The notes under the pieces: generated by a model | Database searches by the model: none | What the model was told of the DNA's origin: nothing | What the model saw: the letters and a program-made list of their open reading frames with translations, nothing else | Assembly (NCBI RefSeq): GCF_006345805.1 | Contig: NC_043001.1 | Location: 92,380,001 to 92,444,000 of the forward strand | From: Octopus sinensis | Taxonomy: Eukaryota | DNA: 64,000 bases | Direction of reading: 5' to 3' | Part shown: positions 7,569 to 45,609 of the stretch, piece after piece | Position numbering within the stretch: position 1 is the first letter of the stretch | How the letters are laid out: every line of letters starts with the position of its first letter | Position numbers and translations under genes: made by a program

Positions 7569-7868
7569 AGAAATCCTATTCGTTTACTATTCCGGGCAGA
7601 ACTTATTTTGCCCATGTGAATGGCAATGTAATTGTCAGTTGCTCTTTTTATGATGGTGATTTCCTGCAGCAATGGGTGGAAAACGGTCCGATAGCTTCTT
7701 GTAATGAAGTCCACCCACTCAACCACGATGGATACAAGATTGAAGAGGTTACCTGCAAAGGGAACGTTGCTTCTATGAAAGTGACACTCCTTAAAATCAA
7801 AACGCTTAATTTCATTTGTTATTCTAATGCATGTGTTAATACCAATTTGACACTTCTGCCACTCTACA
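7569..7868 (+). CDS. Exon: Ig-like domain A1 of a putative multi-Ig type I membrane protein
   Basis: Pyrimidine-rich acceptor (ttttttcag|AG) and donor TACA|gtaagt. 300 nt, phase 1-1, open frame: KSYSFTIPGRTYFAHVNGNVIVSCSFYDGDFLQQWVENGPIASCNEVHPLNHDGYKIEEVTCKGNVASMKVTLLKIKTLNFICYSNACVNTNLTLLPLY. B-strand Cys, C-strand Trp and F-strand Cys pattern; sequon NLT. Confidence 0.75.
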
Positions 7869-8948
7869 GTAAGTGCACACTTCATTTATAAACAAGGAGT
7901 GTCACAGGTGACGCGTAATTTGGACGCAAAGGGTCATAAGTTATGAGCGGTGACATAATTTTCGGGAAGCAATACGCGTTTGCTTGAGAATGTCAGTGAA
8001 ACATTGATATGCTAATTGACATCATTGAAACAGCTCAAATGTAATGGAGTGTTGAATATTCGGTAAATTAACGAAACGTTTGTTAAAATTTGAATATTCT
8101 GGATTCACTTATTGTACTTTTTCTTATAAAATCCTCACCTAGTTTCATAATTCGTATTTACTGCTTAAATTGTTTCCTCTGATCACATCATATCCAATAA
8201 GCTAACACGATTCTAGTTCTCTGTGCTTACGACATTTTGTAGCACTTGGATATATGAGTATTTACTGATGTGTAGACAGAGCCATTATAATATAAGTTTC
8301 TGATAAAAATTTTATATAAAGTAGCAGTAACTAATATACAGACATTGGCAACAATCTGCCAAATAGGAATGCGTTCGAGCGAAGAATGAACGCTTTTTGG
8401 TGTTTCTTTCCCTCAAATTGATCTATGACGTACAGTTTCTATTTGTAATTGCTATTATTTCATAAGTTATTCATATTCTTAGGCTTAATTCTCGGGAATA
8501 TTTTGCATAAGAATAGAAACGCCATGATAGGGGTGAGTGACATACTGTTAGCATATAACAGTAATACTTATGATATTTAAACTTACAGAGAAATATGACA
8601 AGCTCATTTAGTGTGAACTGTAATGAGTTCATCTCACAAGCATCTGGTACGAATTTGGATCCAGTCAATATGACCGTTTTTTTTTCTCTCTTTCACATTT
8701 CTATCTATAATGTAAATTTGTTTCCTGATAATCTATACACTCACACATTCATACACACATTCAACTCACCCATATTAATTTACCACTGCACAGAAACGGT
8801 AACGGACATTTAGTGATACCCGAGTTGTCAATAGTATGTGTATGTTGGTGTGAGTGTATACATACATGTATAAGTTCGTATATAAATATAAATATTAATA
8901 TATATATATACATATATTTTTTGTGTGTATATGTATGTATACATATAT

Positions 8949-9003
<55 letters not shown>

Positions 9004-9005
<2 letters not shown>

Positions 9006-9166
9006 CGTAGGAGTGACTGTGTGGTAAGTAGCTTGTTTACCAACTACATGGTTCCGGGTTCAGTCCCACTACGTAGTACCTTGGGCAAGTGTCTTCTACT
9101 ATAGCCTCAGGTCAACCAAAGCCTTGAGAATAGATTCGGTAGACGGAAACTGAATGAAGCCCGTCG

Positions 9167-9231
<65 letters not shown>

Positions 9232-9455
9232 ATGTGTGCGTGTGTTTGTTTGTGCATCTGTGTTTGTTCCCCCAAACATCACTTGACAACAGATGCTGGT
9301 GTGTTTACGTCCCCGTAACTTAGCGGTTCGGCAAAAGAGGCCGATAGAATAAGTACTAGGCTTACAAAGAATAAGTCCTGGGGTCGATTTGCTCGACTAG
9401 AGGCGATGCTCCATCATGGCCACAGTCAAATGACTGAAACAAGTAAAAGAGTAAA
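9004..9455 (+). mobile_element. SINE-B (tRNA-like head, CORE-like ccttgggcaagtg box, internal (TA)n(TG)n)
   Basis: Further copies at 23659-24035 (+), 24158-24530 (-) and 26183-26645 (+). Confidence 0.85.
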
Positions 9456-11949
9456 GGAGATATACATACATATAAATTCAGGAGATACAAGGAAGATGTT
9501 CAACTCAGACAGACTACGATTGGTGTATATATATACGGATTTAATAAAAAGAATCGTCTAAAACATTTATAAATACATCCAAAATATAGTTATAGAAATA
9601 TATATATGAATGTTAAAAATATGCAAGGACGAATATATATATACATATATAAATATAAGGGAGTATAGATAACAATATAGATGAGGACAATAAAATATAG
9701 AATAAAATATACAAAGACATTTCGTTTAAAAATTATGGAATGCAGGGAATAATAAATGTTTATAAAGAGTCTACTGATTAACATGTACTCTCTGACAAAA
9801 CGGGTAATATTTATTCAATGCCAGATGATACCTATAATAAATTCATTTCGAAGGAATTAAATACCAACTATAAACATGCAAAGGATACCGCACTCGAGTA
9901 TATTAATGAACTACACTATAAACTCATCTCATGGTTGAACCTACAAAGCAGGATTGAACCATACGCTCCAAGAACCCCCCTTTTTACGTTAAAAGACCAT
10001 AAAACGAATTTCCACTCCAAACCATCCATCAGACTGATATGTCCTACGAAATCCCATTTGGGAAAAATTAGCAAACCCATACTGGATAGAATAATACCGG
10101 TGTTCAAAAATAATGTTAAAATCCCTCTATGGAATTAAACAGGTGACGTTATAACATAGTTCCATTGCCTCCCGAATAGGTATAAGACTCGTTTTATACA
10201 ATTCCCACATTTCGAATTATTATGCTACTAGCTCCCCGATATTATTAAATAAGGCACTGATATTTGCCCAGGACTTTGTCAACATCTCTCGATCTGATAT
10301 TGATATTATCCTAACCACAAGAAAAACGTTGATAATTGGATTAGAAGCAACCCGACGAACAATTTTGATATCACTATGGGCTCATCAGATTCAGCCTAGG
10401 TGACAGACCTAGTGGGTCTCAATCAAATTAAGAAAAGCTACCCAAACGTATCTGGTGGGCTATATAGGGATGACGCTCTATTAGCAGTAAATGGATCATC
10501 TAAACCGGAGATTAAACGAATTAAAAAATCACTAAGAACATTTCTTTTGAATTTCTTTAATCTCAATAATTTCTTTAATCTCAATTCAAGACTGACACAA
10601 AAATAGCCAACTTTCTGGACGTCACATTAAATCTAAACACAAAATTATACTACCCGTACAATAAACCAGATCAAACATTGTAGTATATTAACGTCTCTTC
10701 TAATCATCCGAAATTAACTCTCGATAGTATTATCACCGCCATCTCCATTAGAATATCCAATCTATCAGCAAACGAGATCTTCAATGCACACGCACTAACT
10801 TAAAATTAAGCAGCTTCCAGGACCATATTTTCTACATCCCGGACACCAAACGCAAAACTAAATTAGCTAATTGACACATCATAGTAATTCTGACATGAGC
10901 AAACTACCCCACCTCATTAAATTATAAACATATAAGAAGACCTGTCATTAACTCTACTAAATGCTATAATCTTAACACTAGAAATTTTAATAAACATGCT
11001 CCCTCCGTACCCAAACACCTGGATGGAGTAAATCACTCTAAATCTAGGAAAAGACAAATTATATGGTTCGCCCCCACCCCATTTTCCCTAAGAGTTAAAA
11101 ATCTTCCAAAACAGTTTTTCAAAAATCTAAATTTCCCCATGCATCATAAAAACTGCCCTATAATTTACTAAAAATACTATAAAATTATCTTACTCTACCA
11201 CACCGAACTTGGATTCAATTATCGCATCTACAAACAGAAATAAAATTAACTTCAAATTAATGAAAGCCCAGATCATAGGATACCTCACACCCAAATAACA
11301 ATAATAAAACTAAAAGTATAAATAGGAAGCCGAAAAGTTGCAATAGTAGGGACCCTGGATTATGTCCGCTCACGGGATCATGTCTATGCAAAAATGTAAT
11401 ATATAAATGTAGAGTGAAAAATAAAAAACAACAAACTAGGGTATATATAGGGAGTACCAAAGACTTTAAAAAACGGTATAGAATACTTGTGAATTCCTTT
11501 AAGTTAAAACATAGAAACTCAATAGCGTTAACAAGATATATACACAATTTAAAATTGTAAAACATTAATTATACATTGTGTTGGTTGATCATAGGTGATG
11601 CCCCGCCATACAATACCATTACCATTACCAGTAGATGTCGACTGTGTATAAAAGAATCGTACATAATCCTTCGCACTTTTAATTCTAATGTTTTTAAATA
11701 AGTTCTCTGAAGCTATTCATTCACGTAACCATAGATATCATTCAACTTTTAAGAGTAAATTTAAATTCGAACCCGCATAGTAACATTTTCTATAGTACAA
11801 TTTATTGCCGCTTGATTATAATTTTAAAAATAAAAAATAAAAAACTCCCACCAGCCTTCTTAATATTTCCACAACACGTTTGTTTCTTGTATAACATATA
11901 AATTAATTAATACTTCCAAAACAAACACATTTCTGGTGCAAGCAATACG

Positions 11950-13590
11950 CTTCTCTATCAGAGACTGGTTGTTTCATAGTTTTGTGTCGTCGAAATTTTA
12001 TGTAGGTGTTCATTTGAACACTTTTTCTGAACTGTTTGTGCTGCTTTGAAGTAGCTTCTTGTCAAATGGTGTTGTACGAGAATTGCAGCTCTTCGGGGCT
12101 GTCTTCCTCGGAAGAGGAACTTTGAAGAGTAGTGAGGAAGATTGGTGCAAACATTGACAATAAGAAACGTTATTCAAGAGGTACAGAAGTAAAAAAAAAG
12201 AACAAAAAAAAAACAAGAAAGTAAATCCATCAAAATTGAAAATCTACGAGTTGTGCAGAGAGGGTGGCAATGCCACCACCTAAAGATATCATTAAATGAA
12301 TACTGGAGAAAGCAATTATTTATAAAATATATCCAATTGAAGAGAGAAAAATTGAAATAATGTCACCAGACAAAATAGAAAAAGCCCTGAAACCAATCTG
12401 GCGAGGTATCACATATCTTGCCAGAGGAAACCGATTCGGCACAGTGGAGGTTCACTTCAGAGAGGCAGCCATGGCGAAACAATACTCAGCAACCCCGCTA
12501 AGAACTGAGAGTGTGGTATTTCTACCCACACACCTTGGAAGGAGAGCTTCCAGGGTGAGGGTGGAGAGGATTCCATCTAAAATCCACGTGGCTTGGGTGG
12601 CGGCTGCTATACTTCTGGGTAACGAGGATGAAATCGCAGTGCTCCAGGCCACTACATCAGCAGCATTAAATTGGAAAGGCCAAACTTTGGATTTAATAAT
12701 ACTGGCATCGGTGGAGAGTCTGGAAATCATGGTGGAAACGGTGACAGTCGAGGACGCTGTGTTGAGAGTCAGGGTGGAGATCAGAATCCCTCGATGCTTT
12801 AAATGTAGCCTGAAGGGCCACATCAGATCTGACTGCACTTCACCAACCGAGAAGAACCAGGAGAAATCAGGTAAGAACCAGTGAGAGAGGAGAAGGACTT
12901 ACTAACAGAAGTGAAGGAGGACGACGAATCATGGAAAGTCGCAGAAAACAAAAATCAAAGAAGAAAGAAGGCGCGTCAGACAGAGTTAAAACCCCAACCC
13001 ACACCCACCTACACATTCTCAACCCCACCATACACCCGCAAACCCCGAACCTACGCATTCCTTCCTTCAAAAATAAACAAAGGAAAAAAGAAAACACTAG
13101 CACACAAGAATCCCCAAACTTCCTCCTCCCAGACAAAAACAAATGTACAGAATTATGTATGACGATGCTAATGAGGATTTGTGCAATGAGGTAATAACTT
13201 GGACAGATCTTAAAAAAGTAGAAACAAGGGGTTCTATAACATTAACGGTTGGCACGCTTGCATACTGCTTTCAGAGGAACGAAAAAAGAAAGTGTCAAGA
13301 TGCAAAGGTGGATATTGGATGTGGGAAGTGGAGATGGATAGAAATATGCTGCCAGTCTTCGTAACTTATGACGAGCTGTTGGAGAATTATGGGATAGATA
13401 TTTTGGAGGGAACAGGATTCAGAAGGAATTAAAGGAAGAAATGGAGTTTCTCTAAGCTTCATTGTATTTTTTCCATTTTCATTTGTCATTTCATGTTCTC
13501 ATACGCTGCTTTGGTTTTTTTCCTTGTTTTGTATCCCCACATGTGATGTATTGTTCCATCTGTATTCGCCCCTAGTGGGCAATAAAAAAT
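11950..13590 (+). mobile_element. Internally deleted Tx1/L1-like non-LTR element: gag-like ORF1 with CCHC knuckle plus 3' tail
   Basis: ORF 12360-12884 contains CFKCSLKGHIRSDC (C-x2-C-x4-H-x4-C); the element ends gcccctagtgggcaataaaaaa. Confidence 0.6.
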
Positions 13591-13602
13591 CAAAGCACTA
13601 CT

Positions 13603-13698
13603 CATTTCCCCCCCTGATGATAGGGGCATTCCTTCAAAGTGAATCGTAAGATTTTCATGTATTCTCAGAATGGACCCTTGAAACGATCGTAGAAATAT
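13603..13698 (+). ncRNA. Minimal type I hammerhead ribozyme-like motif in the Penelope 3' repeat
   Basis: atttc(c)n-CTGATGA-t-agggg cattc...gaatg..ccctt-GAAAC-gatc-GTA-gaaat: core boxes plus a palindromic loop III. Confidence 0.5.
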
Positions 13699-14089
13699 TT
13701 CTTTTCATTTAAGTACGATACCAAAAACTATTTTTAAACATTTATTACTCCCTGCATCCCATAATTTTTTAACGAATTGTCTTTCTATATTATATTATAT
13801 TATCCTCATCTATATTTTTATCCATACTCCATTTCATTCATATATGTATATATTTATTTCTCTTTGCATATTTTTAACATTCATATATATTAAAATATTT
13901 CTATAACTATATTTTGAATGTATTAATATATGTTTTAGACGATTCTTTTTATTAAATCCGTATATGTATACACCAGTCGTAGTCTGCCTGATTGAACTTC
14001 CTTGTATCTCCCGAATTTATCTAGCGTCTCTGGTTTGACTCGAGCACTTCCATTATTTCTATGATTTTCTAAAGAAAATTTATAATTAC

Positions 14090-14154
<65 letters not shown>

Positions 14155-14161
14155 TACATAT

Positions 14162-14203
<42 letters not shown>

Positions 14204-14361
14204 GAGAGAGAGATAGATAGATAGATAGATACATACATACTACATACATACATACATACATACATACATACATACATACATACATACATACATAAATACA
14301 TACATACATATATATATTATATATGTATATATATATATGTTATATATATATGTATATATAT

Positions 14362-14407
<46 letters not shown>

Positions 14408-14422
14408 TATATATATATGTAC

Positions 14423-14465
<43 letters not shown>

Positions 14466-14543
14466 TATATACATGTATATATATATATAACACACTATAT
14501 ATACATATATATTTACACGTATATATATATACATACATATATA

Positions 14544-14598
<55 letters not shown>

Positions 14599-14660
14599 TA
14601 TTATATATATATATATATACATATATATAAACATATATTATACATATACATATATACTTT
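14090..14660. repeat. Compound (TA)n/(TACA)n/(GATA)n microsatellite
   Basis: Directly visible. Confidence 0.9.
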
Positions 14661-17147
14661 GATACTTTGATACTTTGATAGGTTTCGGCCATTATTGCCC
14701 AGGCCATGTCTAACTTAATAGCACCACCTGGTGAAGTCTTTCAAGTCAGTTTGGGCACTATGGCCCACTCAAGTAGAGAGTTATTGTTTACAGAGACATA
14801 TCCGGTGTAGGGGGTTTATCCGGGATTTCTTGAAGGAATCTGTCCAAAGACTTCTTGAACCCTATAGGGTCAGTTTCTGTTTTAATGTGTTTTGGTGTAA
14901 TGTTAAAGAGAGCGGGGCCAATTGAGGTGAAATAATTGTGCCGTATTGTTGTTATGAGATGAGAGTGCGATTTTTGTTTTGGGCGGATGGCACGGGGCCC
15001 AAGCCTTGGATGTACCTTAAAGGTGATGCCAACATCATTTGGGCAATGCTGATGGAATATTTTCCACATCATGCAGATGATGTAGCGCTCACGACGACGT
15101 TGGAGAGAATAGAGTTTTAGCTTTTCTAGTCGACCCCAATAGTCGAGGCCTGTCATGCCATCTATCTTTTTTGTGATTGCCCTTTGAGGTGCTTCAACTT
15201 TTATGATACCTTGTATTGTGTGGGGAGACCACAGTGGACAACAGTATTCAAGGTGGGGTCGGGCAAAAGTGGAGAAGAGAAGGATAATGGTGTGGATATC
15301 TCTCGACTGGAAAGTTCTGAGAATCCAGGAACACATTCTGCGGGCCATGTCAACTTTGGTGTTTATATGAGTGGCCCAGCTTATGTTGTTGTCCACAATT
15401 ACTCCCAAGTCTCTGATGTTGTTGGACGCCGCGAGAGTTTCACCTGAAGGAAGGGAGTATGGGAGTTTCAGGGCATCCTCTTTTCCAAAGTGGATTAACT
15501 CAAATTTATCCTCGTTCAGCAGCATATTGTTTTTTTTTCTGCCCATTGGATAACAGCCAGTAGATCTGACTGAAGGCATGTCCGGTCACTCGCCTCATTT
15601 ATGACCTTCTGTAGCTTGGAGTCATCTGCAAAGATTTTTATGTTGCTGTGCTTGATGATGTCATTAATGTCATTAATGTAAATGATGAAAAGAAGTGGGC
15701 CCAGCACAGTGCCTTGCGGAACGCCACTACTGACTTTGGCTGGGCTTGATTTTACCCCTTCAACTACAACATGTTGAGATCTGTCTGTCAGGAAACACTT
15801 GATCCATTTCAGTAACTTTCCAGAGACACCAATGTTGGATAGTTTTTTCAATAGGATCTTGTGATCGACCCTGTCGAAGGCCTTACTGAAATCAAGGTAG
15901 ATGACATCGGTGTTGGAGCCCTCTCCCAAAGCTCTCAAAATGTCCTCAAAGTGATGCAGGAGCTGCGTTAGGCAGACCCTTCCATTACGGAACCCATGTT
16001 GGTTGGAGATCAGCCGTCTGTTGCTTTCCAGAAATTGGGTTATTCGAGATCTCACCACCCTCTCAAATACCTTGATGATATGAGAGGTGAGTGAGATCGG
16101 ACGGTAGTTCACTGCAAGGGACTTGTTTCCTTTTTGAAAACTGGGACAACAGACTGGGACAGAAGGTTTTTTGGAATATAGCCAGCATCCAGTGAGTTTC
16201 TCCACAGATTAGCAAGGGGAGATGCAAGTTGGTGTCGACACACTTCAGGACACAAGCAGGGAACCTATCGGGGCCTACTGCTGAATTGTGTTTTATTTCG
16301 TTTATCGCCGCTAAGACATCAGGGGCACTAAACGTTATGTCCGATATAGTGTGTTGGGGGTTGACATCACTGATACAGCCCAGATCGGCCATATCAGGAT
16401 TGCTGAAAACAGAGCAGTATTGTTTCTGCTAGTATCTCGGCCGGCCATGGATTTGGCGTTATCTTGGAGAGTGCCAGTTTCATCAATTAGAGGGCCAACA
16501 ATGGAGACAGTGACCCTGCGTTTCCTCGCAAATGAAAGAACACTTGGGTTTGAGTTTGATTTTTTCAATGGCCCACTTCTCCTCAGCTGATCTTTGGTTA
16601 TTGATGAGGGTCTTCATGCATTGTTGGAGGTTATATTTTTTGGATTCAAGCAGTGCGATAGCCGTCGAATGTGTGTGTTGCTGTTGGCAGTACTTTAGTT
16701 TGTTAATTTTTTTGTTTGTTCTTTTTTTTTTTCTGATAATGGTTTTTCTGTTTTGGGGGATTCTGCACTTTTTGTTCACAGGTCTTGGTGGGGAGTGTTT
16801 TGCACATATGTCTGTGACGGTGTCTACAAAGATCTGCCAAGATGTTTTATGGTTGGTGGAGATGTGTGTATGTGTAAAGGACCAGTCAACATGTGATAGC
16901 TCGTTCCTGATTGCATCCCAGTTGGCATTATGGAGATCCATGTTGTCAAATGGGTGGGCTGGAGGGAGGTCACTAGGATTAGCTTTCGGCTGGTGGAATT
17001 TCATGTTACAGAGAACCATGTCATGGTCTGAAAGAAGGGTTTTTTCCACTGTAACGTTATGTATAGTGTTAGTGTGGTTACTAAACACTAGGTCCAAAAT
17101 GTTCTGATGTCTTGTTGGTGCAAGGACAAGTTGGGACAAGAAAAACT
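14660..17147 (-). mobile_element. CR1/L2-group LINE, 5'-truncated (RT and 3' end)
   Basis: NYRPISLT, YLDFSKAFDRVDH, GVPQGTVLGPLLF, FADD; tail (TCAAAGTA)n. Confidence 0.9.
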
Positions 17148-17194
17148 CATTCGTAAAGTCGAAAATATATATATATATATATATATGTTATATA

Positions 17195-17227
<33 letters not shown>

Positions 17228-17380
17228 ATATCGAAGGGGAGTTAATTCGCCTGTCCATGGCTTTAAGGTGTTTTAACACCGCCGACATGAGCGTTATATA
17301 CACCGCTATGACATTGAAGCCACCGGAAAATACAGAAGCATATATGTATATGTTATATATATATATATGTTATATATATG

Positions 17381-17418
<38 letters not shown>

Positions 17419-17552
17419 ATACATATATATATACAATATATATATAATGTAGTATATATATTACGTGTATATATATATGTATATATATATATAAATATAC
17501 ATATATATATATATACATATATATAAACGTATATATATAATATACAATATAC

Positions 17553-17587
<35 letters not shown>

Positions 17588-17850: not shown

Positions 17851-17888
<38 letters not shown>

Positions 17889-17902
17889 TATAATAGATAT
17901 AT

Positions 17903-18049: not shown

Positions 18050-21000
18050 TCCTGAAGCTGAGACGATAAGACGTGTTTTTACTCCTCTCTGCGCCGGTCA
18101 GCAGCAAGCTTCACAGCTACATTCGTCGTAATTGACCATCACATATATTCCTGTATATTTGAAACCACGCTTTTTCCCAACTCGTGAGTAGACTTTTCCT
18201 TAACCACAAACTATTTTCATAATTTTCAAACGACCAAATATTTTCAAACACCTTCTGATAACTAAAGGATCACCCACACATTAAAAATTAGAAAAAGAGG
18301 GGAAAAAAAGAAAAGAAAATAAAGATAAAATAACTACAAGCTCATAATTCAAATACAAACTTCTCAGTATTACAGCAAACATTCTGTACAATCAATTCTA
18401 CATACTTCTCCTTAAAAAAAAAAAATAAATAAATAAATAAAATAAAATAAAATAAAATAATCAAAAGTAATCAACAAAACAAACGAACAAAATAAAATTT
18501 AATAAAACATATCAACCAGAATGGCTAGCCACCAAAAATCCAACAAAAACTGGTCTGAAAATGAAGTCGACGTTCTCATCAACACATGGCATGGCCTTAC
18601 CGAAACAGAGAGCATAGGTGCTTCGTATCTGAACGAAATTGCTAAACGAGCAGTTCACCATTTGCAAACTCGATCTGAACAGCAGATACAAAATAAATTA
18701 AAACAAATCGAAGTTGCTTTTAAATTAATAAATAAACACTTCGATAAACTGAGATGTGTTTTCTCTTCCAACGCATCACCGGCGCAACAACAACAACCTC
18801 AACAACAACAAACTCAGCGGCAACAACAACAACAACAGCTACAGCAACAACAACAACTTCAGCAGCAACAACCTCACAGCGGCAACAACAACAACAACTC
18901 AACACAAACTCAGCGGCAACAACAACAAAGATACAGCAACAACAACAGGATGAACCACTCCTCGATTCATCTACAATGGCCGATTTGCTAAATGAAACGA
19001 TTGACCCCCCAGTCATCAGGGTCACACAGCAGGAAGCACCACCCCTTCCTTTCACTGCCCCAGCAGCTCAATCATCATCATTGTCAACACCATCTCCTCT
19101 GCTTACTACTACTAGTACAACTCCAAAACATCTTTGTCTTGGAATCGACCTCCTCAATCATTACCACTGTCAACATCTCTTCTACCTACTACTACTACTA
19201 CAACTACTACTACTAATGCTATCTCAAGGAATTTACCTCCTACAGGTCACAAAGGTCGCCAAAACTTCAACAAACTATCATCTACACCTTTCACAACTCA
19301 CACACACACACGCACCTACACACCCACTCGAAACCCCATCATTTGCCGATATTCTCTTCGCCATAGACTGTGCACTGATAGAGACTGCAAATTCACCCAT
19401 TTACCTGGAACAAAACGCTCTATCCCCACAAACTACAACAGCAACCACCATAATACAACACCACCACAACCACCAATATCTCAAACAAGGAATCCCCAAA
19501 TCTGCCGCTATTCCCAGCGAGACAGATTGTGTCTGCACAGGATTGCCCCTTTACCCATCTCCCGGGGACTCGTCGGACATTTAAAGATAACCACTCACAT
19601 AAAAATAGCCGCGGCCACAGTCACCTGCGGTTCCCTAGACAGGAACCACCTCTTCTTCCTCTTTTTTAGCTATGATGAATCTAGCAAAAGAACTGGAAAA
19701 AAACATCCGAGCTATCACCCACCACCATCCACCACAAATACCCCACTGCACATGCCATTAAAAAGCAATCAAATAAACAAATCACCAAAACAATTAAAAC
19801 CATCCACTCTCGCCTCAACATTTCTGCTTAATGCCCAAGGCATCAGCCCTTCCACCAATACACAAAAATGGAAGATAAGATTCCTGGAGGACTGGGTCGA
19901 GGCCCATCCAAACCACATCCCTTTCTTCGTCCTCACTGAAACCCATCTTAGTGACCTCCACTTGGAAGCCGAGGTGAAAGTTAAAAATTTCAAAACCATT
20001 CGTGCTGATCGTGCTGGCAGAAGAAAGGGTGGGACTGCCATTTATGTCCATGATTCATTCTCAACAGAAGCCATGAACATATTTTCGAATGGATACTGCG
20101 AAGCAGTCGCTGTATTCAGTCAAACCAACAACTTAACAGTAGTTGGGCTCTACAGACCACCCCAAACGCCCCTACCATGCTTCAAGGAATGCCTCAACAG
20201 CATAAAGTGTTTCATTCAGCAGTGTCAACCTGACAACATTTTAATGATGGGAGACTTCAACCTTCCCGGGGTTGACTGGTCTACAAACAGTCTGCCGCCA
20301 GGTTCTTCTCTCTCAACCCCTGACAGGGAGGCAATGGAATCGCTTCTTGACTTCATGGATGACTTCTTCTTGTCCAACTGGTACTCGAACCAACGAGATG
20401 TTACAAAAACGTCTTAGACTTAATTTTCAGCAATCACACTGATACTATCCACAATATTGCAGTGGAGAAAACCCTACTCTCCGACCATGACATGGTTCTC
20501 TGTGATCTGAGATTTCACCGGCCAAAATGCAAAACAAATGTCATCCCTCCTGTTCATCCATTTGACACTATGGATTTCCACAATGCAAACTGGGAAGCGA
20601 TCAATAATGATCTTGCAAAAGTCGATTGGTCCTTCACGCACACATACACACCCACTAACATTAAAAAGTCCTGGCAGTCACTTGTAGACACCATCACGAA
20701 CATATGTGCAAGACACACCCCATTAAGATCTGCAAACAAATCTAAGTGTCGAATCCCTAGAAATAGAAAATCTCTCATAAGGAAAATTAAAAGAATCAAC
20801 AAAACAGCAACACACCAACCTGACTGCCATCTCGTCGCTAGAGATTAAAAAACATAAACTCCAAAACAACATGATGTCTATCATCAATAGTCAGCGAAGA
20901 GCTGAAGAGGCCTGGGCCATTGAGAAGATCAAACTCAATCCCAAAGTGTTCTTTTCATTTGCAAAAAAACACAGAGTCACTGGTTCTACTGTTGGCCCTC

Positions 21001-27830: not shown

Positions 27831-28145
27831 ATGATGCAGGTAACCTAAAACCAGTTGGTGGAACAAAGCCTAGAATGCAGAAAGAATTCAGATTGAATTG
27901 TAATATTGGTTCCAGTCCTGATGTCACCTGGTATTATGAAAATGGAGATGTCTTAATGAAATATCGTGATTGTACAGAAATTGGTGGCAACAGCTCTCGT
28001 TTTGCAGGCCGTGCACAATTTACTTGCGAACCCGTGCAAAAGAGGTCTATTTTAACGTTTGTTCCTATCCTTCTCAAAGATGGCAACTTCAGTATTATAT
28101 GCATGACTAACTTTCATGGAAGTGAATACAACATTCGAACAGTCG
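27831..28145 (+). CDS. Exon: V-set-like Ig domain B of the same gene
   Basis: Acceptor attcgcag|AT, donor GTCG|gtatgt. 315 nt, phase 1-1: DAGNLKPVGGTKPRMQKEFRLNCNIGSSPDVTWYYENGDVLMKYRDCTEIGGNSSRFAGRAQFTCEPVQKRSILTFVPILLKDGNFSIICMTNFHGSEYNIRTV. V-set hallmarks LxC, VTWY, RFAGR, SILT and D...C; sequons NSS and NFS. Confidence 0.85.
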
Positions 28146-35140: not shown

Positions 35141-36263
35141 GAGAGAGGGAAAGAGGAAAAAACCGTAAATAGGGTAATACACACACAATACACATATATA
35201 CACTTACTTGTGATACTTATAAGAAACAGAGATATATGTATAAAAAAATTAGTAAATAAATGTATAAGTAAATATATAAATATATAAATACATCTGCCAC
35301 ATACCTGTGATAAATGTAAGTCAGAGATAGATAAAATAAATAAGTAAAATTATATAAAGGACATGGACACATACGAAGCGGACCCATACACATATACAAA
35401 TACACATATATGAAACTTCATGGACGGCCATAACGATGTCAACAACACAACTAACATGGTCAGGAGCAGCGGCGGTGCCAATGATCGCAATAACAACAAA
35501 AGCCACGATAGCAACACCGTGGGCGAAAACACATACACAGAGGAATACAGGAACTGTGCTATTGCTTTGGGGGCGGGGTGTCTTAGGACAGCAGCAGCAC
35601 AATGGGATGAGAGGCTGAGGCTGAGGGAAGGTCACACTACTGCTAAAAATTATGACACATACACAAGCATATACACTCAGATACACCCACACCCACATAC
35701 ACACACATGCACACACAAGCGTGCACAAGCGCGTGTGCAGATAACAATACACATCGTAGAGGAACAGAAAGTAGTAAGCGGAGCAAGAAAACACACGCAA
35801 ACGAAAAGTATCACTGAAGAGGTCACAGGTGTGTAACGTAAGATTTCTGGACAATGGACATGAGTTAAAATAATAAGATAAGAACAGTAATAAACGAGTG
35901 AAGGAAAAATATATAGTGCGTGTGTTTATTTGTCAAATAAATAAGTAAATAAAATGACTATCCCGAAAAACAACACTGTATGTAGATATATAGAAAAGAG
36001 ATAGAAAGTTGTATTGGGTAAACTATATTTTAATAAATTTCTGTTGGTCTGATACCTTAATCTGATTATTAGCTCATTATGTAGATTAATTAGACCTAAT
36101 TTGCACCTCAGAATTTCGAACACCTCTGTAGATTATAAGTTACGTCTACTATCACCTGTGTCATAAATTAAAGAGAAACCGGGAAAAGGAGTGATTGACA
36201 TTATTTGCTTTCAAGTTCCAGAACAAGCTGTCCTCCGTTTACATGAATTTCTTTTAATTACAG

Positions 36264-36569
36264 ACACAAGAAAATTAACTACTAGTAATGTAGTTGGTAC
36301 TACATATATTCAAGGAGATAGAACAGCAACATTCGTATGCCCTTTAGACGAGGGAGACTCACTTTCTCAGTGGAAAGGAGACAACTTTACAGCCAACTGT
36401 TCCGGATCAAATTCTAGAAATCAGTTAAAATTTTTTGCAATCAATATAACATGTGACCCGAAGAGTTCAACTTTAGTCCTCATGATTTCCCATCGGGTAT
36501 CTAAAATGGAAATGTTTTGTGACAGTTACTTAAAGAAAAGAAAAGTATTTAAAGTAACAACACCTGAGT
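36264..36569 (+). CDS. Exon: Ig-like domain A2 of the same gene
   Basis: Acceptor ttttaattacag|AC, donor GAGT|gtaagt. 306 nt, phase 1-1: TRKLTTSNVVGTTYIQGDRTATFVCPLDEGDSLSQWKGDNFTANCSGSNSRNQLKFFAINITCDPKSSTLVLMISHRVSKMEMFCDSYLKKRKVFKVTTPE. Nearly the same Cys/Trp spacing as domain A1; sequons NFT, NCS, NIT. Confidence 0.8.
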
Positions 36570-36929
36570 GTAAGTCTGATTTTTTGATTTTTGATTTTCC
36601 AGTTTCAGCTAATGAGCTGTGGCCATGCTGGGGCACCGCCAGTACATTTAATATGTATAATTTCCCAATACATCCTCTTTTACTCATATAACATAATAAC
36701 GTTTCAAATAATGCTATCTTCCCTGGCATTGACATTCCTATATAATAATCTAAAGCGTTACTGTAAACTCAGGCAACTAGATACACTGCAGGACAAACTC
36801 TGATGAAAGTGAAAAAACTGCCAAAATGAACACCTTGCAGACCAATACCTTTGACTATTTTTCCTTATAGATTCATTATTGGCAAATAGAAAATCATATA
36901 CGAAAACCTACTGAAATGTTTAACATTTA

Positions 36930-38400
36930 ATCTTTATTTCTTATTCTATGTGTTCTTTCCAGCATTATTCTTCTGTTTTCGTTCTGCAATTCCCATCTTC
37001 TCCATCTATCAACTTGTCCTTAAAGTATTTTTATCTTTGTTTCTCACAAATTCGTCTGCGCCAGTATGGTTCTCTACGTTCTGTTTGTTCTTCTTTTGTA
37101 CCCAACTCTGTCTGTAGCAACCATAGCTGCAGCCCAAATAATCTTGTTAGTTTCAGTTATATTTCTCGTCTGGAATAGCCCAAGGGCTGAATCTATCTTT
37201 TCGGTTTCAACTTTGAGCTTGTATTGATCAATGTACCTCAGATTTCAGAGGTGGGTGCTTGATCCTGGTTATCTCTAATACATCGGCACAGCATCCTCAC
37301 TGTTTCTTGTTGATCATCATCGTATTCTTTTGATATAACACTTCCTATTACTTCAGGTTCATTTGCTGAGAGTGCATTTACATTTACAATTTGCTCTGTC
37401 TTCACTACCGCCTTTCATTTTTCTGTTCTCAATGGGAACGATATCTGATGAAGTATTATTTCTATCTTTTACTTTCCTTTTTATCTCTCCTATTTCTATG
37501 TCTGTTAACCACCCTTTTGCTCTTATTGCTCTTGCCTGGTCGGCTAACCGTTGCTCACTTGTCTCGAAGCGTCCTATCCCATTCCATTTTGTTTTCATTC
37601 GTTGTCGGAATCCCCTTCTGCTGGGTTCACTCTTGATCCAGCATCCAATTATCGTTCGGTTTGTCTTCTTATCTCATCTTCTTCTCTGCCTCTGACTTTG
37701 TGTACAAGCAGTCTTTGATGACGACTAGGCCTGTGCAACTCAACCACAGAGCACCTGCCGGACGAAAGGCTTTCACCTTTGGTTCCAGCCTCATTAACAC
37801 CATTATTTGATATATTTATTTTATACATCTTTATTATACATACCTATTGAGGTATGTGTTTTAAGGTTAGCCAACAACCGGTATTTTTATCGAGACACCA
37901 TCTCTAATAAGATTGTCAACCAAGACTGCAAAGTTGGATCTGTTCCCTTTGCATTTCTGTGTGTTGGGGATCATGATCGTGATTCTCAATAGGAGACAGG
38001 TGAGCGTAATTTGGTCCCGTATCTTCATCCAAATATTGCTCCAGAGTTAAGTCCCTATTCGCGGTTCATTCGCCTTCATCCCAGGCATGAAGCCGTTGGA
38101 CAGGTTGTCACCACTTTGAATACGGAGTCCAATCTACCCCAGTTTTAAATCAGAATGTTTCTACTCCTAGACAGACTGCCAATCAAGGCTCACGAGTTCT
38201 GTCAACCTGTTTTCGGAATGGCCATTGATTCTTTTGAGTTCCTCTGCCCTTTGTCGGGTTTTGTATTTTATCTCGTGGGTCTCGAAAATCCACCCTTGTC
38301 ATCAAGCAAACTTAGTGGAGTTGCCGGTTTAGTCGCTGATGACTCGACGATTTCACAATGCTACTTGTTTATCATTCCGGGTAATTATCAATCTGGGTAA
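36930..38400 (-). mobile_element. 5' part (UTR and N-terminal domain) of an R4/Dong-like element
   Basis: SEQRLADQARAIRAKGWLTDIEI resembles the R4-clade N-terminus. Confidence 0.6.
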
Positions 38401-38769
38401 TTGTTTACTTGTTTACTATTATATATTTCTTTATTGCCCTCAAGGGGCTAAACATAGAGGGGACAAATAAGGACAGACAAAGTGATTAAGTCGATTACAT
38501 CGGCCCCAGTGCGTAACTGGTACTTTATTTATCGACCCCGAAAAGATGAAAGGCAAAGTCGAACTCGACGGAATTTGAACTCAGAACGTAACGGCAGACA
38601 AAATACGGCTACGCATATCTCCCGGCATGCTAACGTTTCTGCCAGCTCGCCGTGTTGTTTACTATTATAATTACACTATTACTACTATAATCCCTATCTT
38701 ATTATTTACTTGTTCACTACTATAGTTTCACAATTATCACTATACTTATATCATTACTATAAGGCCTAG

Positions 38770-39345
38770 AAGTCCTAATATTGTCTCCCCTGATTTCTTT
38801 AGACAATAGAGTGGATGAAAACTCGGCCATATCTGCAATAGAGTGGATGAAACCATTGCACATATCACAAACGAATGCCCTAGATTTGCCCCAAACCACT
38901 ACAAGTTGTGACGACACGACCAAGTAGTGAAAGTGCTACATTGAAAATTGTGAAGAGTGGGAGCTAGAGAGAAGCAAGACGTGGTATGAGCACAAACCGC
39001 AGAGATTGGCGGAGTCGGAGACAAACAAAACTCTCTGGGATTTCCTATTCCAAACAGAATAGGTGCTAGAGCATAACAGACCGGACCTGGTGGTAGTGGA
39101 CAAAATGTACCACATGTGCTATATAGTTGATGTCGCATATCCCTTTGACCCACGAACAGCAAAAAAGAAGGCGAAAAAATAAATAAATGCCACCCTCTTG
39201 AGTACGAAATAGCCCTGCTATGGAAAGTGAAGAAGGTAAAAAAGTGCCAATTATTGTTGGCTCCTTGGGAACAGTATTAGAAGGCATCAAGAGAAATATC
39301 AAGGAAAATGGAATAGAGTACCCAACAGAACTGTTACAAAATAAC
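38770..39345 (+). mobile_element. R4/Dong-like RLE fragment
   Basis: RRHDQV, LWDFL, HNRPDLVVVD, KVPIIVGSLG. Confidence 0.7.
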
Positions 39346-40128
39346 AATTACCATAATAATTATACTAATTATAACAAGAACACCATTAGTTTCTGTAAAA
39401 ATAGAATTACAAATCTGGTAATAATTATGAGTATGACAGTATTAAGAAGTGCAGCGTGGAAGGTGTTTATACGCCATTTAAGAAACACACAAAAACCGTT
39501 AGATTCACTTCAACACTTAAATTTAATTTGCCAAAATATTTTCGTCGCTTTGAGACCGTGACCTGTTCACTAACAAAATTCCGTGCTGCATCAGTTACGT
39601 ACTGGGGTCGATCTAATCGACTGGTCCCAACTCTCCAAAAATTTCGGTCCTTTTGCCTAGATTAGAAATGAATTTATTGTCTGATACCTAAAAAATCTGC
39701 CATCCCCCTTCTCTTATTCACCTATTTTGTTTTTATTTGTTTATTTTCTCAATGTTAACTGAGATCATCTAAAGTTTAAATACCAAACTGACTTTCCTTA
39801 AGATATATTTCATCTCAGCTTGCTATCTTTCTACCATCCCTCTCCTTGTATTTAATTACTTCCTTGTATTGATCCTAAAATTTCAGTTCTTATTTGATTT
39901 TCAAGTATGTATATCGCCTCGAAAAAGTTATGTTAACATAAATTTTTAGACATACCTGATATCAGAGTCAATTCAGTTTGAAACGACTTGTGCATTGTAT
40001 CATTCGTTTATTATACTTAAAGATACTTACAAAGCTGAAACGCATGATGGCCTTTTCTGTGGTGTAATCTCGTGTTAAAAGAGTGTTATTCTCCATTCTA
40101 GTTAATGTCTTTTTATAATATAAAGATA

Positions 40129-41042
40129 AGATGGGGTACCCAAAAGTAACCGGAAGCATTCTTTGTGGAACAATACCGTTGTAGTTCAGGCTTTCATTGC
40201 TAGAAGCCACTTTATGCGACACTCAAGTATCGGTCTGCTGACCAGCGTTGTCTGCTGACCAGCGTTGTCTGCTGACCGGCCATGTGGTGCGTCTTTGTTA
40301 TGCAGAGTTTCTCCCTTGTTCGTCGATTTTTGCGATGGCTGGAAGGAAGGAACAGCGTCATACTTTTGTGAAATTCTGTTTTCTGCTAGGGAAAATGGCA
40401 GCTGAAACAGTTGTGTTGCTTCATAGAGCTTACAAGGGCGCTGTTAACAAAACATAAGTTCACGAGTGGTTTTCCCGCATTGGGAATGGTCATTTGTTGC
40501 TTGATGGCCAACCTCGTCCAGGGCGACTGTCGACATCCTGAATGAATGAAAGCATCATGAAAATTCATGAACTGATGTTGGAGGAGCGTCACGAACAACT
40601 GAAGAACTTGCTGATATGACTGGTGTCTTCTGGAGCTCCTGCCAACGAATTTTGGGCGAGGAATTGCGAATGAAAATATTTGCAGCAAAATTTGTGCCTC
40701 GTTTGCTCAAGGATGATCAAAAACAGTCACGACTGAATGCGTGTTCTGAACCGAAAGAACAGCTGGAAGTTGATCCGGACCTTTTTTCGAAGGTTATGAC
40801 TGTTTACGAAAACTGGTGTTACGGAATTTGAAGATGTGGGAGAGGTGAAGAAAAAAACGACAAATGCGTTAAAAGGCATCACTTCGCAAGAATTCCAGCA
40901 ATTCTTCGGATAGTGGAAACTGTGCCTGAACTGATGCATTGGTTCCAATGGAGACTACTTTCAAGGCGGTATAAGTGTAAGCGAGTAAAACTAAGTGAAT
41001 AAAATAATATTGCAAAATCCCGGTTTCTTTGGGTGCCTCTCG
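40129..41042 (+). mobile_element. Mariner remnant
   Basis: Imperfect TIRs (ggggtacccaaaagtaaccgg / cccggtttctttgggtgcctctcg) with TA ends; FVKFCFLLGKMAAET, AKFVPRLL, MTVYENWCYG. Confidence 0.88.
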
Positions 41043-41342
41043 TACATATATGTGTACGAATCTCCTCATGTGATCTTATGATGGGTATCTCGTTAAATAA
41101 ACACTGTCTCGCTCGGTTTTAATACTGCACGTTGCTAGCGACTATGTTTAAACCAATTTCCGTCTCTCTCATTTGTTACATACTCAATGTACACTGAGGA
41201 GATACCGTGATAGATCCAACAACTATTGTAAAAGTACTGTGGATGACATCAGGTAGCCATAGGGCAGTGAACGGCATCATCAGCTTACTACTAGATACAG
41301 ACCCAACACTTAAATATTTATTCATATGTGTGTATGTATATA

Positions 41343-41382
<40 letters not shown>

Positions 41383-41659
41383 TGTATTTATGTATACATT
41401 CGTGCGTGTGTGTGTGTCTATCTTTATATTTTCGATAAATGAACTTAAATAAAACGTTGAATGATTATCAAACTTTTCTTAATTCCCATTATTTTGTTTA
41501 TATATTTATTTGTATCTATCTCATATATATTTTCAAATGTGACTGCTTGTTAAATATTCCTTATTTTTAAAAGAATGTTACTGTAATAATTTTGCTTACA
41601 CTTTCGTGAAACTCTATAAAGAGTGGATTGTTAATATCACTACCGTCTTTCTTTTGTAG

Positions 41660-41680
41660 CTACGGGAGGTGCACTGGGTG
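41660..41680 (+). CDS. 21-nt micro-exon (stalk, STGGALG)
   Basis: Strong acceptor ctttcttttgtag| and donor GTG|gtaagt. Phase 1-1, keeps frame between the Ig exon and the TM exon. Confidence 0.65.
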
Positions 41681-41755
41681 GTAAGTAATATATATTTTGA
41701 AAGTATTTTTTATTGATGATAGAATTCAAAGTATTGTATATTATCTTATGAACAG

Positions 41756-41799
<44 letters not shown>

Positions 41800-42059
41800 T
41801 ATAGTCACTTCTTTAAATACATACATGTATACAAATATACACAAACATACGGGAAATCATGATAAGCATAAATTTATAATATTAGTTCATACGCATATTT
41901 CTCCTTTATGGTTGCTTGGGATCCTGAATTTAATGTTCTATGTGTATTTGTGTACCTAAACAGAACAGATCATACGGGAATACTTTATTGCATTAAGTTG
42001 CAGGGAACTAATGCCAAGAATTGTGTAGATCATGAGGAATTATATAAGCATTGTGTGGC

Positions 42060-42565
42060 GGCGCAATGGCCCAGTGGTAGGGCAGCGGACTCGCGGTCGT
42101 AGGATCGCGGTTTCGATTCCCAGACCGGACATTGTGAGTATTTATTGAGCGAAAACACATTAAGCTCCACAAGGCTCCGGCAGGGGGTGGTGGTGAACCC
42201 TGCTCTACTCTTTCACCACAACTTTCTCTCACTCTTTCTTCCTGTTTCTGTTGTACCTGTATTTCAAAGGGCCAGCCTTGTCACTCTGTTTCACGCTGAA
42301 TCTCCTCGAGAACTACGATAAGGGTACACGTGTCTGTGGAGTGCTCAGCCACTTGCACGTTAATAAATGAGCTGCGACGTCACTGGTGCCAAGCTGTATC
42401 GGCCTTTGCCTTCCCCTTGGATAACATCGGTGGCGTGGAGAGGGAGGCTGGTATGCGTGGGCGACTGCTGGTCTTCCATAAACAACCTTGCTCAGACTTG
42501 TGCCTCGGAGGGTAACTTTCTAGGTGCAATCCCATGGTCATTCATGACCGAAGGGGGTCACAAAA
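42060..42565 (+). mobile_element. SINE-C (tRNA-derived head)
   Basis: ggcgcaatggcccagtggtagggcagcggactcgcggtcg..ggtttcgattccc; TSD atataagcattgtg. A related copy with a different tail lies at 58540-58846 (-). Confidence 0.8.
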
Positions 42566-42834
42566 TATAAGCATTGTGAGAGGGAAATAGAAAGAAAGCA
42601 ATTGGCAGTGAAAGAAAAAGTGAGATTAAAAAATAAGAGAGAAAGTGGGTGAAAGGGAGACAGAGAAGACAAATGGAGAATGAAGAGAGAAAAAGAAGAC
42701 AGAACAGAAAAAGGGAGAAAGAAATGCAGAGAAAACAGGAAGAAATTTAAAAAAAACGGAAGAGAAACAAGAAGGGAAGGAAGAAATAGTAAGTTGGACA
42801 ACAACAAAAGGGATAAATAAAAATATGAAAATAT

Positions 42835-43192
42835 GAGCAAAACGCCCCCCGTCCAATGGACGGTGCTGAGTTGTCAAAATTTTAAACCAAATTTTCTCAA
42901 AACAACTTGTCCGACCGTTCCATAGGCCTCCCCTTTGAGAAAAACTGATTTAACCTAAATTTGAGACACCAGCAACAGAAGAAATAAAGACAGACATTTT
43001 CTCGCGTACGCGTAGTATCGATCGGAACAGCTGATGTACTTGCGCGTACAAATGCATGTTCCCACGTGCATTCTCACCTGGAATCGATTTTTGAAAATTT
43101 TTCAAGACTTATACACGCCTTGATACCGTCGGTATCTACATATCAAATTTAAGCGCAATCGGATGGAGGATGCACGAAATCCTAGAAGACAC

Positions 43193-43225
<33 letters not shown>

Positions 43226-43245
43226 AAAGATTTTATATAATAGAT
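42835..43245 (+). mobile_element. HINE/Helitron-like element (paralog of 27290-27619)
   Basis: Shared core, (ACAG)n and ttttatataatagat end. Confidence 0.6.
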
Positions 43246-43382
43246 ATAGCATTCGTGATAAAGTAAGTGAAATTAATATAATTGATTAATTAAATAAAGT
43301 AGTTAATAAATAGATACAGCCAATGGATAGAGAAAAATAAAAAAATGCGTAGTAGGAAAGAGAGCAATGTGTGTGTGTGTGT

Positions 43383-43420
<38 letters not shown>

Positions 43421-45456
43421 TGTGTGTTTGTGTGTGCATTTGTGTGTGTGTTTGTGTTTTTCGTAATATCTCCTACATTTGCTCCATATATATCATAACT
43501 ACTAATATCATCAAGTATAGTAGTTGCTTAGGCACTATACTGGAAGTAGATTAGATAATCTTCGTGGGTCTCTAAACTCAAGAATAGCAGTCGTACATTT
43601 TCTTAGTGAACATAAGATACAATATATCCAATCGTATATAAATTCACGCAGTCAGGTATATGTGCACGCATACATAAGCATATTCATATACATACATATA
43701 AATGCATGAATATGGACGTATGCTCATTAACATATGCTGTAGCTGCTGCTATCACAACTACTACTACTACTACCGCCACCACTACTACTAATAATAATAC
43801 TGCTGCTGCTGAAGTTGTTGCCATTATTGTTAGAATGATCCAGTAGATTTCTCACCTTAATTCCAATTGCTTATCCTTTTGCAGACCCTTCTGTTAATCG
43901 TAGAAGGATCGCATATTTGAGAGGTTGAGGTAGGTGGGCTCGGTTGCATGCATTTGAACCAGGCCTTCGAGCCCAGAATTTTTGAGACCTTTCCATGTTT
44001 CTAAGTTTCCTTTTGTGTTTGACGTCGATTATAAAATCTCCCGGACATTTCGTTTATCCTGTTGGTTGTCACTGAAAGGAGTAGATTTGAGTATGTCATA
44101 TAGGAGGTCATGTACGACTGCATCTTGCTTTTCAGATAGTCGAGATGAATTCAATTATTTTACTGGATCAGACAGGTTATCGTTTGCAAGACTTCGTACT
44201 TCGGATCTGCATGTGCAAACAGTTTAGTGAAGTGCATAGACTTGAGACGAAACAGTGACGTCGAAAGATGTTTTGTTTTATTTACACAGACTAAAAATTG
44301 TGGAGCCACCCTGATAACATTATTAACAAGCTAATACAGAGTTATTTTGGTTGAGAAGAAGCCGATATGAGTATTCTGTAGGAGGTCCCAGGATCCTCTT
44401 TGGGATGGATCAATGAAAAAAACTGAAATTTGTGTCATGAAAGAACAGTACATGAAGGTATATTTTGCTTTCCTGACTACTACTTAGCATAAGTTGTGGT
44501 TGCAGGACACCAGGTCGTAGTTTTTCGCTCATTTGAGGAGTTTAAAGGCAACTGCATACAAACACCTTAAGAGGTGTGAGAAAATAGAGCAAGACACACA
44601 TGTAGTGCGGACTACAGGAATCGAAAATCTTTATTGAATACATGATTAGAAGGATGAATTTTGGGGACGATGGGTGCCGCGTAAGTACCAACCCTACACT
44701 TATTAAATAGGAGCTATTGTAGTGTCTATTCTGGTATGTACAGATGGGTTTAGGGTTACATTTCTTAGTTAGAAGTATACAATATGTTTTCGAAGACGGT
44801 AAGTAGAGTCAAGGGTGGCACGCTGGCAGAATCGTTAGCACACCGGGCGAAATGTGTAGCCGTATTGCGTCTGCCGTTACGTTCTGAGTTCAAATTCCGC
44901 CGAGGACGACTTTGCTTTTCATCCTTTCGGGGTCGATAAATTAAGTACCGGTTACGCACTGGGGTCGATATAATCGACTTAATCTGTTTGTCTGTCCTTG
45001 TTTGTCCCCTATGTGTTTAGCCCCTTGTGGGTAGTAAATAAATAGGTAAGTAGGGTCGAGAAAAGAAGTTGTTTGCGGTGACAGAAATGTTTCTGATGGG
45101 AATATTGCTGGGCTTATAACTGAGTGTGAGGATGGTGCTGCTAATGATAATGATGGTTTGATGTTAATATATTTGAAAATAATAACTATTATTATCATGC
45201 TTACCTCCCCTCTCACATCAGTTCTAATCGGAGCAAACCTACAATCAAAGGAATACGAATAAGACTACATTATCCATTGAGTTTTCCGTTGTTCAGTACG
45301 GGTTGTGATTCGAGAGCGATATGAATACTGTTTTGTAACAGGCAGATTGCCTAAAGAGTTCCCTACCTTGGCTTGCATCGTGTGAAATGTATAATGATAT
45401 TGAAATGCATGCATAATATTTTAATGAAATTTGTATTTGCTTATCTTGTATTGTAG

Positions 45457-45609
45457 ATAACTTGGAGTACGTTGTAATTATAAGTTTGTTGATTCTTCTC
45501 CTGATTGCCGTGATTATCTTTAATGGTATATGTTTTATGACGTCTGTAGGACGTCACTACTGGCTTAAAAGGGCAGATACGTTTGAGAGTACAACGTCAA
45601 CTCAGAGAT
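45457..45609 (+). CDS. Exon: transmembrane helix and short cytoplasmic tail
   Basis: Acceptor cttgtattgtag|AT, donor AGAT|gtaagt. 153 nt, phase 1-1: (D)NLEYVVIISLLILLLIAVIIFNGICFMTSVGRHYWLKRADTFESTTSTQR. A hydrophobic run of about 22 aa is followed by basic residues. Confidence 0.8.

Follow-up and report, generated by a model that had tools for sequence, protein, structure and literature searches.

A three-domain Ig-like membrane protein gene of Octopus sinensis and its short- and long-tailed relatives

Do five short exons, spread over 38 kb of a 64,000-nucleotide stretch of Octopus sinensis DNA, form a real gene for a surface protein, and if so, what would its product do? The stretch, referred to as the window, is NC_043001.1 C5:92380001-92444000 (C5 stands for this contig throughout), and the gene under study, on its + strand, is called gene A. 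The original prediction, made from the sequence alone, had described a hidden gene for a type I membrane receptor with three immunoglobulin-like (Ig) domains, and had proposed a lineage-specific immune, allorecognition or cell-recognition role for it. The observation is confirmed by the analyses reported here, and the interpretation is partly supported. Gene A is a real gene, previously predicted and uncharacterised. Sequence comparisons lead us to favour tentatively, just short of calling it probable, the reading that its product is a conserved non-signalling recognition partner (a ligand or co-receptor) in an octopod immune-type Ig receptor family.

Exons and gene models of gene A

The coordinates, lengths (300, 315, 306, 21 and 153 nt) and frame of the five exons were confirmed. 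All have AG/GT ends and are phase 1-1, with one domain per phase 1-1 exon, and they join in a single open frame as Ig-Ig-Ig-linker-transmembrane (TM)-tail. In addition, a signal-peptide exon was found upstream of the window, where it had been expected. The exons of gene A are as follows (window positions unless C5 is given).

7569..7868, + strand: Ig domain 1 exon, V-like, five cysteines (from the sequence, with the fold from the O. bimaculoides orthologue)
27831..28145, + strand: Ig domain 2 exon, V-like with C' and C'' strands, Cys23/Trp33/Cys90 core plus Cys47 and Cys65 (from the sequence and a fold model)
36264..36569, + strand: Ig domain 3 exon, sequence related to domain 1, all-beta in the model (from the sequence and a multi-domain model)
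41660..41680, + strand: linker micro-exon, 21 nt, its segment also in the O. bimaculoides model, not in the O. sinensis model
45457..45609, + strand: TM exon, inner end with a conserved Asn and Cys, about 22 tail residues (hydropathy 3.1)
C5:92372663-92372714, + strand: signal-peptide exon, 52 nt, phase-1 donor, in frame with domain 1, 7.3 kb upstream of the window

These exons are far beyond chance expectation. A blind scan of both window strands, which required an open phase 1-1 exon of 270-330 nt flanked by strong splice sites, returned three candidates on the + strand and none on the - strand, and these three are the Ig exons; block-shuffling the + strand 100 times yielded 0.03 candidates on average, none with the C-W-C spacing. 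The leader exon is hydrophobic, comprises 17 codons in frame and is by sequence a predicted signal peptide, which together with the single TM helix gives a type I layout; the O. bimaculoides leader maps to this exon at 84% identity (16/19). The several N-glycosylation sequons that had been seen number six, with one, two and three in domains 1, 2 and 3, respectively.

Gene A is not hidden, because public gene models already cover it in part. The matching exons of XP_036359034.1 (O. sinensis, LOC118763565) are 100% identical to gene A; this model lacks the signal peptide, domain 1 and the micro-exon, and its tail exon is repeat-derived. The gene A segments of CAI9723261.1 (O. vulgaris) are also 100% identical, with domain 1 and domain 2 matching at 99/99 and 104/104 positions (203/203; one sequence per species), and the model fuses gene A to the upstream paralog. 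XP_014780451.1 (O. bimaculoides, LOC106876422) contains all five segments, the micro-exon among them, in unchanged order, at 68-80% identity per domain and 68-69% in the outer domains. UniRef labels the last protein 'Ig-like domain-containing protein', and both LOC106876422 and LOC118763565 are 'uncharacterized'. A full-text search with six gene ids of the family, subscription papers lying outside its scope, turned up no paper that names them, and topic literature searches, judged from titles and abstract starts, returned nothing on this Ig family. The six ids are also absent from the supplement text files available for PMC9712504 (3 files) and PMC13230822 (1 file).

At the 3' end, an Asn and a Cys-Phe at the inner end of the TM helix are common to gene A, its O. 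bimaculoides orthologue and a neighbouring paralog, B; a second neighbouring paralog, C, lacks the Asn. The core of the gene A helix has no charged residue, the only notable residues being the polar Asn and a Cys. The O. bimaculoides model ends one residue past the position at which the gene A TM exon ends, and the common tail comprises about 22-25 residues with one tyrosine. No match to an immunoreceptor tyrosine-based inhibition (ITIM), switch (ITSM) or activation (ITAM) motif was found in either public tail of gene A or in paralogs B and C. Two further exons come from the public O. sinensis model.

56203..56254, + strand: tail exon of the public model, doubtful, inside a high-copy repeat
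59263..59338, + strand: candidate last exon of the public model, unique sequence without a second genomic copy

The tyrosine-rich tail of the public model was set aside, because its first exon (56203..56254) lies in a high-copy repeat with 1141 candidate genomic copies; among 40 that were scored, 39 lie elsewhere at 83-87% identity. By eye, a 10-nt stretch of 59263..59338 also occurs in the last exon of paralog B, and a weaker donor 4 nt downstream of 45609 (45610-45619) would join 59263-59338 in the frame of the public model, skipping the repeat-derived exon.

Predicted folds and the Ig family of gene A

Domains 1 and 2 are predicted to adopt V-like Ig beta-sandwich folds, in line with the folds originally proposed. 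An AlphaFold2 model of the O. bimaculoides orthologue (6-sequence alignment; pLDDT, the predicted local distance difference test, 71) contains three beta domains and a membrane helix, domain 3 having eight strands. In this model, domain 1 matches CRTAM (Z 10.9, root-mean-square deviation (rmsd) 2.9, 92 aligned) and nectin-1 D1 (Z 10.0, rmsd 2.2), as well as NCAM Ig5 and DIP/Dpr Ig1, and domain 2 matches CD4 D1, FcmuR and T-cell receptor (TCR) V domains. Domain 2 modelled alone (pLDDT 83.5; C' and C'' strands at 40-45 and 48-51) matches TCR V-beta (Z 11.1, rmsd 2.3, 87 aligned), CD4 D1 (Z 10.5), and OPCML and P0 (Z 10.0 and 9.8). Overall, the predicted models of domains 1 and 2 match Ig structures at Z 10-11 and rmsd 2.2-2.9 over 84-96 residues. 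Domain 3 is all-beta (pLDDT 56-79), and its structural matches occur within two-domain or multi-domain alignments only.

The Cys(B)-Trp(C)-Cys(F) pin is present in all three domains of gene A and invariant in 14/14 domain-2 sequences. Ile, Phe and Met stand two residues before the F cysteine in place of the tyrosine corner (D-x-x-x-Y-x-C), in agreement with the original remark that the canonical DxGxYxC is missing. Domain 2 has a weak Pfam ig match (E 0.064), and the gene A domains do not reach the Pfam V-set cut-off. The second cysteine pair in each domain likely forms a further disulfide, as suggested by sequence. The fifth cysteine of domain 1 is present in both O. sinensis and O. bimaculoides; gene A domain 1 keeps all five, one of which is possibly free for a disulfide-linked dimer. 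In domain 1 of paralog B (L018:1501-1800), the B-strand Cys is replaced by Tyr, and the F-strand and following cysteines are kept. Domain 3 of gene A matches domain 1 of paralog C (E 2e-8). The best PDB sequence matches of a domain-2 profile are TCR V domains, at a weak E of 0.006, and a domain 1/3 profile gave nothing under E 1 against PDB sequences. A common origin of domain 2 with domains 1/3 is only suggested, because their profile-profile match is weak (probability 5.8%, E 0.0066).

Gene A belongs to a cluster, as had been surmised, consisting of a local triad of tandem paralogs with a related array elsewhere. Genes A, B and C, each with a signal peptide, three Ig exons, one helix and a tail of fewer than 40 residues, lie at C5:92.28-92.44 Mb and are 30-37% identical.

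Paralog B, C5, + strand, upstream of A: signal exon 92314297; Ig exons 92326951, 92333566 and 92340912; TM exon 92345201; last exon 92349344
Paralog C, C5, - strand, upstream of A: signal exon 92293517; Ig exons 92286217, 92282799 and 92282349; TM exon 92277522

The tails of four triad proteins contain 0-1 tyrosines. Genes A and C have one-to-one O. bimaculoides orthologues (tree support 97/92 and 100/99), C being 77.6% identical overall, and domain 2 is identical to O. vulgaris at 105/106 positions in B and 105/105 in C (one sequence per species). The triad forms its own clade beside a long-tailed cluster (support 89/83, unstarred), and a triad profile search found five proteins, all from Octopus.

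A domain-2 search of the genome gave 16 matches among 19 candidates: three are those of the triad, 11 are exons bounded by introns that form a second branch, and two are intronless copies. Among the at least 11 domain-2 exons of the second branch, seven lie head to tail on the - strand in a 1.2-Mb array at C5:38.8-40.0 Mb, interleaved with matching domain-1, third-domain and TM exons; one of the others is at C5:115.5 Mb and three are on unplaced contigs. A shared-constant-region (protocadherin-like) cluster is not favoured, because most variable pairs have their own third-domain and TM exons. In the annotated long members, two V-like domains are accompanied by CD80-like C2 and I-set domains, a helix and a long tail; three of these tails, of 430, 286 and 130 residues, contain 30, 19 and 7 tyrosines, respectively, along with ITIM-, ITSM-, YxN- or YxxM-type motifs. 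The array at C5:38.77-39.99 Mb, with at least seven long Ig receptor genes, is arguably a more interesting part of the family than gene A. The model of LOC115212116 (P0013) takes its outer domains from C5:39.96-39.99 Mb, and its TM exon matches C5:39.61 Mb (97%) over 39.93 Mb (74%); it is probably a chimeric gene model, or possibly reflects long-range splicing. Split or frameshifted domain-1 exons on contigs C8310, C9302 and C9479 are pseudogenes or assembly errors.

Variation over the 11 domain-2 exons is densest in the stretch following the B-strand cysteine and in that between C' and C''; these loops (BC and C'C'') align to the TCR positions which we take to be complementarity-determining regions 1 and 2 (CDR1 and CDR2). 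The pairwise ratio of nonsynonymous to synonymous change (dN/dS) is 2.69 in 21 loop codons versus 0.55 in 77 framework codons, and a codon model gives omega 3.05 for the loops (likelihood-ratio test against 1, p 0.0009; post hoc) and 0.81 for the framework (p 0.39). In five disjoint pairs, pN is 0.341 versus pS 0.113 in the loops (p 0.0002) and 0.042 versus 0.088 in the framework. Unselected whole exons of domains 1-3 have omega 1.84, 1.38 and 1.13 (pairwise 1.48, 0.98 and 0.80). Transposon-borne or broken copies (C7, C11115, C8310, C9302 and C9479) and the triad genes were excluded from these tests, and some of the rows used may be alleles. The diversifying signal belongs to the long-tailed cluster, 52 Mb away, and not to gene A. 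Gene A itself differs from O. bimaculoides at 9/21 loop and 25/83 other positions, without clear loop enrichment.

Splicing in the layout proposed here can be read from two intronless copies. A 1.84-kb palindrome at C7:88.896 Mb, whose 157-bp ends are common to repeats on many contigs (26 matches), holds two inverted copies of an intronless signal-D1-D2 segment with junctions exactly at the genomic donors and acceptors of the cluster genes; therefore, a cluster member was transcribed and spliced in this layout. The evidence concerns that cluster member, not gene A. The element itself (L016:118-1959, C7:88.896-88.898 Mb) has terminal inverted repeats and is Pack-TIR-like, as far as the part of PMC8277862 consulted describes such elements, and a broken copy (L043) lies on C11115. 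In one arm a frame of 216 codons remains open, from which a secreted protein of two domains would be made, and a transcript of the palindrome would form a long hairpin.

Searching 1.84 billion proteins with a profile gave 54 matches at E<=0.001, of which the top 12 (E<1e-29) comprise 11 Octopus-named proteins and one unnamed, followed by Argonauta hians (4.6e-16). Identities were looked up for 23/54 matches; the others among these are generic multi-Ig or unrelated proteins, with no squid or cuttlefish name, and no close conserved orthologue outside octopods was seen among the matches named, as the original prediction had held. The restriction of the family to octopods is tentative, because it is drawn from those 23/54 matches and two weak full-domain matches (P0042 and P0049) are unnamed. 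P0049 (393 aa, E 2.7e-5) has a signal, three Ig domains, a helix and a 17-residue tail, and may be a more distant family member.

Candidate roles of the gene A product

As a recognition partner, gene A would encode a glycosylated single-pass surface protein with three Ig-like domains and a short tail without signalling motifs. The outer domains would bind a fixed partner on another cell via a loop or a sheet face. Since the tail is without a tyrosine motif, signalling, if any, would depend on a membrane partner, which the conserved transmembrane Asn/Cys may recruit. Variable recognition and tyrosine signalling would fall to the long-tailed relatives, by analogy with CD200/CD200R or CD48/CD2-type pairs. 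An immune-type ligand or co-receptor is ranked first because the relatives look like diversified tyrosine-signalling receptors. CD200-CD200R, CD48-CD2/2B4 and CD47-SIRP are pairs of a short-tailed ligand and a tyrosine-tailed receptor. Gene A resembles them in its V-like outer domains (CD48 at Z 9.5-9.8 and CD200R at Z 9.4-9.7) and in that a conserved protein with a short tail stands next to a diversified cluster with tyrosine-containing tails, but identity is 7-18%, the fold alone is common, and gene A has three V-like domains instead of V+C2.

Several points weigh against an immune-type partner. The immune signature sits in relatives that are 31-37% identical in domain 2 and 52 Mb from gene A, and among the 11 domain-2 exons are four from outside the main array, of which the three on unplaced contigs are possibly alleles. 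The loop omega is inflated because the loops were first picked as variable by eye; moreover, the codon model may run high, as it returns omega 1.13 for the constant-type exon (pairwise 0.80) and puts the framework below 1 without significance. The public O. sinensis tail would add 7 tyrosines, though via the repeat-derived exon. Neural adhesion structures (nectin, Necl, OPCML and Dpr/DIP) lie within 1 Z of immune ones, and a shared Ig fold by itself shows no function.

The main rival, possible though rather unlikely in our view, is neural or developmental adhesion, with the triad forming a limited surface code, comparable to Dpr/DIP, Beat/Side or nectins, that binds itself or its paralogs in trans. 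The three-Ig layout and short tail resemble nectin/Necl/IgLON, whose folds tie with those found here, and the one-to-one orthology of A and C with O. bimaculoides genes, like the identity to O. vulgaris, would fit a conserved role. The CD80-like C2 domains of the long relatives also fit, since nephrin/Side-type proteins have such domains. However, for wiring molecules an outer-domain identity of 68-69% from one Octopus species to another seems low (without a genome-wide baseline), and loop diversification of an immune-like kind is seen in the relatives. At useful E-values, no sequence link to Dpr/DIP/IgLON/nectin appeared, with none at E<0.001 in PDB sequence searches and octopod proteins as top profile matches. 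The systems share three (or two) Ig domains, a V-like outer domain, paralog sets and tied top folds (PMC10084454, consulted in part), but gene A is transmembrane instead of glycosylphosphatidylinositol-anchored, lacks the tyrosine corner and has octopods as its named relatives.

Less probable is an activating receptor that binds microbes or damaged cells, signals via a tyrosine-motif adaptor held by the polar TM residue, and is paired with inhibitory long-tailed relatives. This fits the inner-helix Asn and Cys conserved in A (two species) and B and the ITIM/ITSM-like motifs of the long relatives, but the helix core is uncharged and paralog C lacks the Asn. Paired receptors usually have near-identical binding domains, and the ectodomain of gene A is only ~35% identical to those of the long receptors.

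We also give a low probability to an octopod receptor-ligand self/non-self system, in which invariant short-tailed V-Ig proteins would mark self and be read by the tyrosine-tailed array through CDR1/CDR2-like loops under diversifying selection.

An allorecognition determinant like Hydractinia Alr1/Alr2, that is, a highly polymorphic self marker binding matching alleles only, is very unlikely for gene A. The likeness lies in clustered type I proteins with degenerate V/I-set domains that are missed by hidden Markov models yet Ig-folded, some Alr members having ITIM/ITAM tails (PMC9546547, in the parts consulted). However, according to the same parts of that paper, the B-F cysteines are missing from domain 1 of Alr and an FN3-like spacer is present, whereas gene A keeps Cys-Trp-Cys and has a 7-codon micro-exon instead. 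Allorecognition-type variability is not supported for gene A, which is unlikely to be a polymorphic determinant because its domains 1-2 match O. vulgaris at every position and ITIM/ITAM motifs are missing, domain 2 of B and C differs from that species at 1/106 and 0/105 positions (again one sequence per species), and the differences from O. bimaculoides are not clearly loop-concentrated. Gene A is not variable between two species, and the likeness to Alr is not one of demonstrated homology. Gastropod FREPs share molluscan variable Ig domains with this family (PMC11999971, in part), but gene A is membrane-anchored, not secreted, and has no fibrinogen or lectin Pfam match, in contrast to FREP/CREP/GREP. 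The top Atlas feature matches are unnamed molluscan clusters (0.93-0.95).

That unrelated exons were joined or that gene A is a pseudogene is highly improbable, for although the public gene models disagree, the frames and splice sites are intact, the orthologue has the same joins and two intact paralogs share the layout.

Surroundings of gene A and significance of its family

The description of the introns as transposon-filled stands for intron 1 and the flanks, where matches to long interspersed nuclear elements (LINEs) were found, but not for intron 2, in which 4/4 open reading frames (ORFs) examined had no Pfam match. The Pfam scan covered 22/45 window ORFs, those of introns 3-4 being outside that set.

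15519..16208, - strand: LINE reverse transcriptase fragment in intron 1 (Pfam RVT_1, E 9e-28)
19116..20414, + strand: LINE endonuclease fragment in intron 1 (Pfam Exo_endo_phos, E 1.6e-7)

Several - strand LINE fragments (zf-RVT and RVT_1 matches) are interleaved with long TTA repeats at window positions 47100-53800. Downstream, a neighbouring exon at C5:92450224-92450517 presumably belongs to an AMP-binding (acyl-CoA synthetase-type) enzyme, as judged from a motif we recognised.

Gene A alone is a modest find, being already predicted, uncharacterised and not variable, and the interest lies mostly in its family. Octopuses show skin-sucker self-recognition, and cephalopod immune and self-recognition receptors are largely unnamed. 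A 2025 review of invertebrate Ig proteins contains no mention of octopus or cephalopods, and a 2022 cephalopod genome paper none of immunoglobulin. The family described here gives specific genes, those of a short-tailed branch that is conserved and those of a long-tailed, clustered one that varies in CDR1/CDR2-equivalent loops. If the proposed receptor-ligand system is true, it would represent the first diversified family of Ig immune receptors in cephalopods, and haemocyte or skin-sucker self-recognition would have a candidate that can be tested.

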